Sequence record: MT682710.1
Source: Escherichia phage vB_EcoM_FT
Reading direction: 5' to 3' (one strand)
Length of the DNA stretch: 64,000 nucleotides
The position numbers and the translations under genes are program-made. Positions 2,968 to 58,867 of this stretch are shown in pieces; the first letter of the stretch is position 1; each line of letters opens with the position of its first letter. The notes under the pieces were generated by a model that was given only the letters and a program-made list of their open reading frames with translations, had not been told where the DNA came from and ran no database searches.

Positions 2968-2997
2968 ATAGTACCACGGAAGAACAGTCTTGTAAAC
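2968..2997 (-). promoter_or_regulatory. early sigma70-type promoter (GTTTAC-N18-TACTAT)
   Basis: read on minus strand; followed by conserved leader with GGAGG. Confidence 0.55.
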
Positions 2998-3182
2998 AAC
3001 TTTTTTAAAAATATTCGTAATAAATGTGAATACCAACTACTACCGCTGAAACCTGTGCAACCCACCACGCACAAGCAATAAGTACAGAATTCATAATTTT
3101 CATAATAACCTCATTACAAAAGTAAATGTTAAACAAATTACTGGAATACTAATTAACCAAACAAAACACCACCATAGTGAAC

Positions 3183-16624: not shown

Positions 16625-17227
16625 TTATAGATTAAATCCTTCAAAATCAAGAGTATAGATAGTGTATGTTGAATACTTTTTGTACTCATATCTATCTGCA
16701 ATTCTAAATACACTTCCAGCTGGTATCATTACTTCTTGTTCATCTGAAACTAATTCCATATTACGATAACGATGACTATCCGGAAACTTAAAGTTTGGAT
16801 TGTATTCTTTACAGCGTAGAGCTTTTATAGCATACTCCTGGAAATTGAATACCATAGGAGCTTTGAATTCAAAAATAACCTGTGTGTTATACTCTAAACC
16901 GGAAGCAAAATGTAGAGCTATATTTTTATCATATGAAGCTGATACTACTTTATCAAATGTAATAATATCAATTCCTTGATTTAACACTTGCTTAGTCTCG
17001 ACTGGAACACCTCTCCAAAGAGGTTTATCGTTTGGAACCAAACGAGATTTGATTATTTCATTTAACCAAGTATGGTCATCTGGCTTATTGGTAATACAAT
17101 GAATTAAAAGTTCAATTTCAGATAAATTAAACCCTTCAGAAAGCAATTCTTCACGAATAGAAGCACGCACCGATGCATCCATTGATTTTATTTTAAAATC
17201 TTTTAGTTGCATTACTGAGTATTTCAT
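16625..17227 (-). CDS. modA: ADP-ribosyltransferase ModA
   Basis: 200-aa ORF; R72 (LWRG), SAS, EQEVMIP motif; T4 ModA length. Confidence 0.85.
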   Translation of the reverse strand: MKYSVMQLKDFKIKSMDASVRASIREELLSEGFNLSEIELLIHCITNKPDDHTWLNEIIKSRLVPNDKPLWRGVPVETKQVLNQGIDIITFDKVVSASYDKNIALHFASGLEYNTQVIFEFKAPMVFNFQEYAIKALRCKEYNPNFKFPDSHRYRNMELVSDEQEVMIPAGSVFRIADRYEYKKYSTYTIYTLDFEGFNL

Positions 17228-17847
17228 TCAACTACCTCAATATCATAAACTTTAAATGTTCCAAATGAATCGTGTAATTTTTCTTTTGAAATAGAAGTTA
17301 TTCTATACTTTCCAATTGGAATCATCCATTCTTGTTCACGCACAATCATCATTAAGTTATCAGTACGCTCTGAATCTAATCCATCAGTATCTTCATACGT
17401 GTACTTAAACTCAGTATTAGGAGAAGAAAGTATAATATCGCTGATATGGTCAGAATAATTAAAAGCTTTATTAGTTTTTAAGCGAAGTATTATTTTAGTA
17501 AAATATTCAGCGTAAGAAAAAGAACATGCTGTGAGCAAACTAGTAGTAAATGAATCTACCCTGTTCGTTGAAAACACTTCTCCAACTTGTAAATCTTTAA
17601 TAAGTTCTTCTGTTGATTTTGATATACCACGATATAACTGATAAGGTGATTTAGTTAAATGCTTTTTAATGATTTTATTCAATTGCCGATGAAGAGCTTC
17701 ATTCTTTTTAGCTTCCATACATTGCCAAAGAACAGACTGCTCAAAGTCAGTAAATTTTTCACAGACCTTTTTATACATATCATATTGAAAATCAACGCTT
17801 TCAGCTTTTATAGATAACTGTTCAACATCTGCAAGATTAATAATCAT
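17224..17847 (-). CDS. modB: ADP-ribosyltransferase ModB
   Basis: 207-aa ORF; LYRG, FSTN, REQEWMIP motif; T4 ModB length. Confidence 0.85.
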   Translation of the reverse strand: MIINLADVEQLSIKAESVDFQYDMYKKVCEKFTDFEQSVLWQCMEAKKNEALHRQLNKIIKKHLTKSPYQLYRGISKSTEELIKDLQVGEVFSTNRVDSFTTSLLTACSFSYAEYFTKIILRLKTNKAFNYSDHISDIILSSPNTEFKYTYEDTDGLDSERTDNLMMIVREQEWMIPIGKYRITSISKEKLHDSFGTFKVYDIEVVE

Positions 17848-57450: not shown

Positions 57451-57651
57451 TTATTTTGACATTTCTTCGATGTCACGACGATACCCGTCACGAACTTCAC
57501 GAAGAGCTTCAAGGCCACACATAGGCTCGATACCAGTAATGTGAACTTGATTAATCTGATACTCTACATCTTCTAACTGAGCGAAAACATAACGACGTTC
57601 AGCTGCACAACCAGATTTAGCTTTACCGAAACGTTTATTCAAAGTAGTCAT
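57451..57651 (-). CDS. hypothetical protein
   Basis: 66-aa ORF behind promoter 57690..57719. Confidence 0.45.
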   Translation of the reverse strand: MTTLNKRFGKAKSGCAAERRYVFAQLEDVEYQINQVHITGIEPMCGLEALREVRDGYRRDIEEMSK

Positions 57652-57722: not shown

Positions 57723-57986
57723 TTATTTTAATTTTCGCCAAATTTTTACTGCTTCTCGCCTCGATACTTCTACGGCGCCAAGTTCTATAGCTTTTTGACG
57801 ACGACTTGCACGTAAGTCATAATGTTTAATGCGTTTATCTTGAAACCAAGAACGTTTCATTCCTATTGCTTCTGCCATTTCGTGAAGCTCTTCAATATCT
57901 CCATCAGTGAACATATGACAATTTTTAGTTGGATGACCGCGAAGTTTCCATCCATGATTCATTAAAACATCTACGTAAACTGTCAT
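57723..57986 (-). CDS. hypothetical protein
   Basis: 87-aa ORF; preceded by an untracked 49-aa ORF (about 57983..58132) with overlapping stop/start. Confidence 0.5.
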   Translation of the reverse strand: MTVYVDVLMNHGWKLRGHPTKNCHMFTDGDIEELHEMAEAIGMKRSWFQDKRIKHYDLRASRRQKAIELGAVEVSRREAVKIWRKLK

Positions 57987-58168
57987 TGATTCTTCTCCAA
58001 ATAAGTTTCGATAATTTTCTGGGCGAGATAAACCGCGTTATCTTCAGTTGCGTCTTCTAAGAAACTTTCAAAACACTCTGAAATTTCTTCTGTATCAATC
58101 AACTTTTTTACTTCAATTGGTGTAATTTTCATTTTGTTTTCCGTTTAAGTGTTTGTTTTGATAGTTGT

Positions 58169-58198
58169 ATAGTACCATAAAGCTTTATGCTTGTAAAC
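58169..58198 (-). promoter_or_regulatory. early promoter, downstream copy of the direct repeat flanking the ART-like ORF
   Basis: GTTTAC-N18-TACTAT; preceded by hairpin and repeat gtaaacaactttgtgaaaaatttttgaaataaaaa. Confidence 0.55.
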
Positions 58199-58254
58199 AA
58201 CTTTGTGAAAAATTTTTGAAATAAAAAGGGGACCTCTAGGGCCCCTTTATGCTT

Positions 58255-58755
58255 TTATTCCATTTCTATTATATGCATGCTCTTTTTGCTATCAAAATAT
58301 ATGTTTTTAACTGTTAACTCCGAATTAATTGGCAATAAAAACTCTCTTTCATAATCCACCATAGAAAGATTATCATAAAGCTTATTAAGCTTATCATCAT
58401 CAATCTGGCCAGATTCTTCAATTGCGATTAAATTTTCTAAAATTTCAATCATAGCAGTTGAATAGTCAAAAACGTTTGCATTTTTTAACACTATTAAAAC
58501 ATTAGTCATATAGCGTTCTGCTGCAAATGTTTCAGCTATATGGGATTCACTACTAAAGGAAGTTATTCTTTTAAATTTGATTCTCCTATTAACTTCAAAC
58601 TTATGAGATAGTACTTCCTCTATTGTAAGTCCTCTAAAAAGTACGTCTTTAATCTCAAGTTTGTCTTTAATGTAATCATTAACACGCTTATGATTAAAAT
58701 CATTAATTTTGTTGCCAAGGCATTTCATTAAAATATGCATTGTGTTTCTCTTCAA
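58255..58755 (-). CDS. putative mono-ADP-ribosyltransferase (ModA/ModB-like R-S-ExE signature)
   Basis: 166-aa ORF; LFRG (R41), SFS (66-68), EREFLLP (136-142), spacing nearly identical to ModA in this window; flanked by promoter-hairpin direct repeats. Confidence 0.5.
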   Translation of the reverse strand: MKRNTMHILMKCLGNKINDFNHKRVNDYIKDKLEIKDVLFRGLTIEEVLSHKFEVNRRIKFKRITSFSSESHIAETFAAERYMTNVLIVLKNANVFDYSTAMIEILENLIAIEESGQIDDDKLNKLYDNLSMVDYEREFLLPINSELTVKNIYFDSKKSMHIIEME

Positions 58756-58789
58756 TTTTTAAAGAACGATTAATTAACTACAAATATAT

Positions 58790-58818
58790 TATAATATGCT
58801 TTATGATAGAAGTAAACA
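58790..58818 (-). promoter_or_regulatory. early promoter, upstream copy of the direct repeat flanking the ART-like ORF
   Basis: GTTTAC present, -10 less clear; same about 35-bp repeat as at 58191..58225. Confidence 0.45.
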
Positions 58819-58848
58819 ACTTTGTGAAAAATTTTTGAAATAAAAAAA

Positions 58849-58864
58849 GGAGCCCGAAGGCTCC
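58849..58864 (-). terminator. GC stem-loop with UUCG-type tetraloop downstream of NTase gene
   Basis: ggagcccgaaggctcc then T-run on minus strand. Confidence 0.55.
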
Positions 58865-58867
58865 CTA

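Follow-up and report, generated by a model that had tools for sequence, protein, structure and literature searches.

The question raised by this locus is what is encoded by a short gene found downstream of nrdC.11 and upstream of nrdC.10 in Escherichia phage vB_EcoM_FT, and how that gene came to be there. The three ADP-ribosyltransferases of T4 (Alt, ModA and ModB) provide a textbook example of how a phage takes over its host; ModA (200 aa in T4) is the ADP-ribosyltransferase that acts on R265 of RNA polymerase alpha, and ModB (207 aa in T4) is an NAD-protein ADP-ribosyltransferase and RNAylating enzyme. The first-pass annotation of the window, by which we mean the whole 64-kb stretch of DNA that was analysed, had proposed that the gene encodes a third, N-terminally minimal ADP-ribosyltransferase (ART) of the Mod type with an R-S-ExE catalytic signature, and that it forms an accessory cassette bracketed by direct repeats and hairpins of the PeSL (promoter-early stem-loop) kind. 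The explanation we favor is that the gene specifies a functional third Mod-family R-S-ExE mono-ADP-ribosyltransferase carried on a recombining PeSL cassette, and we consider this highly probable. The coding features concerned are:

58255..58755, minus strand: the ART open reading frame in its 166-aa version, reading from a TTG at 58755.
58255..58740, minus strand: predicted gene for a third-paralogue Mod-family mono-ADP-ribosyltransferase, 161 aa, with an ATG start.
58748..58753, minus strand: Shine-Dalgarno-like GAAGAG, 7 nt 5' of the ATG at 58740, read from the sequence.
16625-17227, minus strand: ModA, with R72, S96 and E163/E165.
17224-17847, minus strand: ModB, with R73, S99 and E171/E173.

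The 166-aa reading frame reported earlier is a genuine one and lies on the minus strand, which had been left unstated, but its length has to be revised. We reject the TTG at 58755 as the start codon because it overlaps the GAAGAG element, whereas the ATG at 58740 lies 7 nt past that element and is the annotated start (of a 486-nt CDS) in the GenBank/RefSeq records inspected. The Shine-Dalgarno sequence reads GAGGAG in the aligned copies of Salmonella phage STML-198 and Citrobacter phage CF1, and the record for phage Moon has a ribosome binding site annotated at the equivalent position. This makes 161 aa the most likely length of the protein. In 166-aa numbering its motifs are LFRG at 39-42 (R41), SFS at 66-68 and EREFLLP at 136-142, exactly where the first-pass annotation had put them along with their ModA equivalents; in the 161-aa numbering used below they become R36, S61-x-S63 and E131-x-E133. 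The distance from R to S is 25 residues in the ART ORF, 24 in ModA and 26 in ModB, and that from S to E is 70, 67 and 72, respectively, so the spacings are as close to those of ModA as had been claimed. An RG...SxS/T...ExE pattern within those spacings arose in 9 of 20,000 residue shuffles of the ORF, and the idea of a chance motif in a non-gene is rejected on the homology, fold and dN/dS described below.

When the ART protein was compared by phmmer with all ORFs of the window, only ModB (5e-12) and ModA (7e-9) were matched, both over nearly the full length. By BLASTP the protein is 27% identical to ModB (E 4e-13) and 28% identical to ModA (E 1e-11), and since ModA and ModB are themselves 26% identical (E 1e-14), the protein is, by sequence comparison, a third paralogue that is about as distant from ModA and ModB as those are from each other. 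It also matches PHROG 832, 'RNA polymerase ADP-ribosylase', with an E value of 3.7e-24, and the Pfam family PF26816 (Mod_ADP_RT) is carried by an orthologue that is 95% identical (P0001) and by two metagenomic homologues that are 61% and 54% identical (P0002 and P0003). Our local scans of Pfam-A and NCBIfam gave no ART match for the ORF; they missed ModA and ModB as well, which makes this null result uninformative, and the local copies do not contain PF26816.

A word-indexed search for homologues returned three clusters, and family depth was instead taken from an exhaustive search of representatives with a Mod-family profile, which reached 101 representative clusters. In an alignment of 50 of these 101 representatives few columns are as well conserved as those of the motif: R36 and G37 never vary, and S61, E131 and E133 are each conserved to at least 90%. 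The homologues that are 54% and 61% identical also have an intact catalytic motif. R36 aligns with R73 of ModB, the mutation of which abolishes activity (PMC10468400). A neighbour-joining tree puts the ART protein and P0001-P0003 in a clade of their own, outside the ModA and ModB clades, with other short-N-terminus proteins as its sister. The description of the protein as N-terminally minimal is accurate, although the feature is not unique to it: 35 residues precede the catalytic Arg compared with 71-72 in ModA and ModB (family range 26-102), which makes this N-terminus the third shortest among the 50 family members.

The Mod-family profile also reaches MuF-fused phage proteins with PF03496 (ADPrib_exo_Tox) and PF01129 (ART) domains. 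Four proteins matched by it (P0036, P0047, P0050 and P0061) are large, up to 1814 aa, and contain several ART domains (PF03496, PF01129), and P0036 has a MuF domain in addition. The profile match to these large multi-ART proteins connects the small enzymes of the Mod family with polyvalent ART effectors that are virion-borne.

An AlphaFold2 model of the ART protein was obtained with a pLDDT of 94.7 and a pTM of 0.87. The model has the split beta-sheet core of the R-S-E (ARTC) fold, with the motif residues on strands 1, 2 and 5; R36 is at the end of the strand formed by residues 29-37, S61 is in strand 60-63 and E133 opens strand 133-136. The predicted structures of ModA and ModB homologues superpose on it at TM 0.79-0.88. 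We know of no solved structure for a member of the Mod family, so this comparison is one between predicted models; the family profile, run against the sequences in the PDB, gave chance-level matches only (E at least 0.2). The predicted fold is accordingly that of an R-S-E ADP-ribosyltransferase and not an unrelated one, and together with the nearly full-length similarity to ModB and ModA and the conserved motif columns it upholds the original assignment to the R-S-ExE family.

Going by what is established for R-S-E ARTs, R36 and the S61-x-S63 strand would hold NAD+, E133 would be the catalytic glutamate and E131 would predict arginine as the acceptor. A protein of the same fold and family could, however, carry out a chemistry other than plain protein ADP-ribosylation, such as RNAylation (the attachment of NAD-capped RNA to proteins), modification of a nucleic acid or small molecule, or NAD+ hydrolysis. 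The case for this is that ribosomal proteins S1 and L2 are RNAylated (PMC10468400) by ModB, which with ModA is closest to the ART protein, that some R-S-E ARTs (e.g. pierisin and ScARP) are established modifiers of DNA guanine and that the ART protein is much shorter at its N-terminus, a region with a part in target recognition in related ARTs. We nevertheless regard it as improbable given that E-x-E is the form known to be typical of arginine-specific protein ARTs, that the ART ORF falls outside the ModB clade and that it bears no sequence sign of RNA or DNA binding. The reading we prefer is that the enzyme ADP-ribosylates at least one host protein during takeover, and since its lineage is separate from those of ModA and ModB it would do so with a target set of its own. 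From the sequence, then, the gene product is most likely a mono-ADP-ribosyltransferase that is expressed early, is directed at arginine and has a host target of its own.

The window is that of a Tequatrovirus like ACG-C40 and SYGD1, to which 801 bp at the cassette are 99% identical, and the ART gene is present at full length, with 94-99.6% DNA identity, in 43 phage records. By comparison, nrdC.11 was matched in 749 records (499 of them at 90% identity or more), from which it follows that the ART gene is dispensable. Eleven copies were translated and ten are intact. The remaining copy, in Escherichia phage BW-1 (OR125554.1; L014, 401-885), is split by a 1-nt deletion into two annotated CDS, the mark of a true pseudogene or else of an A-run that was misread in sequencing.

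The small number of records, the frameshifted copy and a dN/dS of roughly 1 or more in the closest pairs (window, T2, ACG-C40 and Moon, which differ by only 1-3 synonymous changes) would all fit with a decaying or non-catalytic paralogue, that is, a pseudo-enzyme, a binding protein or a gene under loss that is passive in a hyperplastic region. This is very unlikely in our view. Between two orthologue subclades dN/dS is 0.13-0.21 and none of the motif residues vary, evidence at the sequence level that the gene is under purifying selection; furthermore, all in-frame copies examined, and the homologues at 54-61% identity as well, have intact catalytic residues, the fold is modelled with confidence, and the gene retains a consensus promoter, a Shine-Dalgarno sequence and a terminator of its own. 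A functional enzyme remains the explanation we favor.

The flanks of the gene consist of the following elements:

58847..58866, minus strand: upstream stem-loop with an 8-bp GC-rich stem and a UUCG loop, then a U-run (terminator scan).
58812..58846, no strand assigned: upstream copy of a 35-bp direct repeat (exact match).
58788..58817, minus strand: early promoter of the ART gene, GTTTAC-N18-TATAAT (TTTACT-17-TATAAT; scan, 10/12 matches).
58229..58245, minus strand: downstream stem-loop GGGGCC...GGUCCCC, then a U-run (terminator scan).
58193..58227, no strand assigned: downstream copy of the 35-bp direct repeat (exact match).
58169..58198, minus strand: early promoter for the gene that follows, GTTTAC-N18-TACTAT, its -10 preceded by TG (promoter scan).

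Read along the minus strand, the nrdC.11 stop codon is followed by a hairpin, an A/T-rich segment, a promoter, a leader with the Shine-Dalgarno sequence and the ART gene, after which come a second hairpin with its U-run, the same A/T-rich segment, GTTTAC-N18-TACTAT and the next gene. On both sides of the ORF, therefore, a stem-loop is directly followed by an early promoter, the arrangement that defines a PeSL. The upstream copy of the 35-bp repeat, TTTTTATTTCAAAAATTTTTCACAAAGTTGTTTAC in minus-strand reading, is made up of a T-run, the A/T-rich region and the -35 hexamer GTTTAC. Two exact copies are present in the window where none would be expected by chance, and no third copy was found in the 64 kb with 3 mismatches allowed. 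The first-pass annotation was right about the existence of the two repeats and placed them 1-2 nt away from their actual positions (58191..58225 for 58193-58227 and 58811..58845 for 58812-58846). When the hairpins are included the repeat (family D1) extends to 53 nt at 87% identity. An exact 29-mer of the repeat is absent from the 14 loci compared because these differ from it by 1-2 nt.

As had been described, each repeat is joined to a GC hairpin; both hairpins (58866-58847 and 58245-58229) are followed by T-runs on the minus strand. The upstream one, directly past the nrdC.11 stop, is terminator-like and is the stem-loop half of the upstream PeSL; its predicted RNA fold has an energy of -13.5 kcal/mol (z = -3.1), and it is the same in T4 and T2. 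Its downstream counterpart is terminator-like with respect to the ART gene and also provides the stem-loop half of the downstream PeSL; its fold of -12 kcal/mol has a z of only -1.6 and is indistinguishable from shuffles. This second hairpin is kept in T2 and CF1 and deleted in STML-198. Relative to CF1 and T2, STML-198 (L004, ~2990-3050) is without ~64 bp 3' of the ART gene, comprising the terminator hairpin and the -35 part of the downstream PeSL, whose -10 and leader remain. No Rfam family reached its gathering score anywhere in the 64-kb window.

The ART promoter, ~50 nt 5' of the ATG, matches the consensus for early promoters of the T4 type, and the -10 and leader of the downstream promoter, which here drive a 49-aa ORF, are the same as those driving nrdC.10 in T4 and T2. 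Both flanking promoters fit the consensus published for PeSLs of the T4 group, TTTACW-N17-TAYWAT (PMC4122927), and both are among the 18 GTTTAC-N18-TAYWAT sites of the window (from 2968 to 62832), all of which are on the minus strand and of which 0.07 would be expected. Taken as a whole, the 18 sites map the T4-type early promoters across the window. Several pairs have long spacers in common, among them 2968/31269/55988 and 7732/53007, where the spacers are identical and might likewise serve in recombination. There is also a near-consensus sigma-70 site, TTGATA-16-TATAAT (11/12 matches), on the minus strand at 58268-58295; it is inside the 3' end of the ART gene just upstream of the terminator hairpin and may have arisen by chance in A/T-rich DNA. 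The ART gene would be transcribed alone as infection begins, its T4 early promoter being of the sigma-70 type, and its transcript would end at the gene's own hairpin.

T2 has the ART gene and T4 does not. In T4, nrdC.11 and nrdC.10 are adjacent and separated by a single 114-bp spacer in which the upstream hairpin is followed by the shared A/T-rich -35 segment and then by the -10 and leader of the downstream PeSL. Close relatives are thus polymorphic for the presence of the cassette and the empty site holds one chimeric PeSL, which is exactly what a crossover between the two repeats would leave. A plausible scenario is that homologous recombination within the 35 bp shared by the two PeSL units deletes or inserts the ART unit. 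The PeSL model, together with mini-circle experiments, was put forward by Arbiol et al. 2010 (PMC2839356); recombination through mini-circles was demonstrated there only for RB49/phi1.

The DNA of the ART gene is 98.4% identical between the window and both STML-198 (Gelderlandvirus) and CF1 (Moonvirus), whereas nrdC.11 and nrdC.10 of these two phages are only 68-75% identical to those of the window in DNA and 67-78% in protein. The block of cross-genus identity runs from the -35 GTTTAC of the upstream promoter to the Shine-Dalgarno sequence of the next gene, and in the alignment the hairpins and sequence outside it are unrelated. A cassette so much better conserved than the genes on either side of it is a clear mark, in the sequences, of recent exchange among Tequatrovirus, Moonvirus and Gelderlandvirus, and recombination through the same 35 bp may have been the route by which the unit moved between these T4-like genera. 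The proposal that the gene is an accessory cassette is consequently well supported: it has PeSL flanks, an empty site in T4, near-identity across genera with diverged neighbours and a presence limited to 43 records that include T2 and not T4.

More distant homologues were also found. In a metagenomic T4-like contig (L006, 4001-4546; Logan ERR12726568), whose phage core proteins are 59-79% identical to those of the window, a 61% identical ART homologue is inserted between regA and the DNA polymerase gene 43, inside an otherwise conserved replication module, with a promoter-like sequence and a GC hairpin of its own. The start called for this homologue is probably 24 codons too early, as the extension covers the promoter-like sequence. 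The 54% identical homologue P0003 follows a homologue of nrdC.11 (RlaP) in a hairpin-promoter-gene-hairpin layout.

In the window, three further small genes separate the ART cassette from nrdC.10:

57983-58132, minus strand: 49-aa ORF.
57723-57986, minus strand: DUF4031 protein.
57451-57651, minus strand: 66-aa ORF.

All three are absent from T4 and T2, and ACG-C40 is without the 66-aa ORF only. Early-promoter matches at 57718-57690 and 57449-57421 belong to the last two of these three small-gene units, and a 26-nt repeat family (D2) occurs at the -10 and leader of each unit, which points to nested indels at the ART site.

The least probable alternative is that the cassette is immobile, an ancestral gene deleted in T4 and most relatives with repeat flanks that are ordinary neighbouring promoters: the gene is found downstream of nrdC.11 and upstream of nrdC.10 in 11 of 11 records with context examined, P0003 also follows an nrdC.11 homologue and in distant phages the divergence of the ART (54-61%) is similar to that of core genes, but this would leave unexplained the contrast across three genera between 98.4% identity in the ART and 68-75% in the flanking DNA, with a break exactly at the -35 box, the homologue at a different site (regA/43), and the fact that the two PeSLs resemble each other above any other site in the window, as expected after crossover.

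Our preferred reading, a mobile unit encoding a Mod-type enzyme, can be set beside several known systems. Like ModA and ModB, the ART protein belongs to PF26816 and PHROG 832, has R-S-ExE in the same register at nearly the same spacings, has a helical hairpin between the fourth strand and the ExE strand in its model, and is encoded by a small gene on the early-transcribed (minus) strand. Unlike them, it is without ~36 N-terminal residues, it is encoded ~40 kb away in the nrdC-mobD variable region rather than in the modA-modB tandem, and it is accessory (43 records) where modA and modB are near-universal. Its sequence identity to bacterial R-S-E toxins of the cholera-toxin-like (ARTC) group, namely Tre1 (Serratia), clostridial C3, Vis, VIP2/iota, ExoS and SpvB, is only 7-20%. 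Compared with these toxins it is a smaller protein with the helical insertion specific to Mod enzymes, and no partner for secretion, translocation or immunity goes with it. Precedent for the cassette comes from the PeSL cassettes described earlier (PMC2839356; Comeau et al. 2014, PMC4122927), with which it shares (i) a single variable ORF between stem-loop/early-promoter units; (ii) one chimeric PeSL at the empty site of a close relative, here T4; and (iii) a crossover zone in the A/T-rich -35 segment. It differs from most published PeSL cargo, which consists of ORFans, in having a predicted function, and from the published cases, which concern sister phages, in showing transfer between genera.

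Neither the identity of the gene as an ART nor PeSL shuffling is new. About half of the 43 records annotate the gene as an ADP-ribosylase, under labels that include 'RNA polymerase ADP-ribosylase', 'ModA', 'modB_2', 'NAD--protein ADP-ribosyltransferase' and 'ADP-ribosylase', and UniProt K4FJU3 is likewise annotated as of the ADP-ribosylase type; PeSL shuffling was published in 2010 and 2014 (PMC2839356, PMC4122927). A full-text search of the literature found no paper on a third Mod paralogue, its activity or its target. We see the ART as an uncharacterised member of a known enzyme family, a result that is solid but modestly novel, and current concepts are unchanged by its identity or by the flux of its cassette, both of which are open to standard T2/T4 genetics.

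The locus is nonetheless an unusually clean example of PeSL gene flux: the function of its cargo can be predicted, T4 has the exact empty site, and identity breaks off sharply at the -35 box. ModB recently revealed protein RNAylation, and T2 and ~40 other records contain, in the ART, a further separate Mod lineage that offers a natural comparison with the T4 enzymes, having the same fold and a shorter N-terminus. T2 and T4 form a natural knockout pair for the gene and provide a good experimental lead. One further possibility, which we consider rather unlikely, is that the ART targets a protein untouched by ModA and ModB, for example a host defence or stress-response protein. If this were so, the ART would be a horizontally traded counter-defence or host-range module, and it could account for some of the ways in which phages of the T2 and T4 types differ in phenotype on certain hosts.
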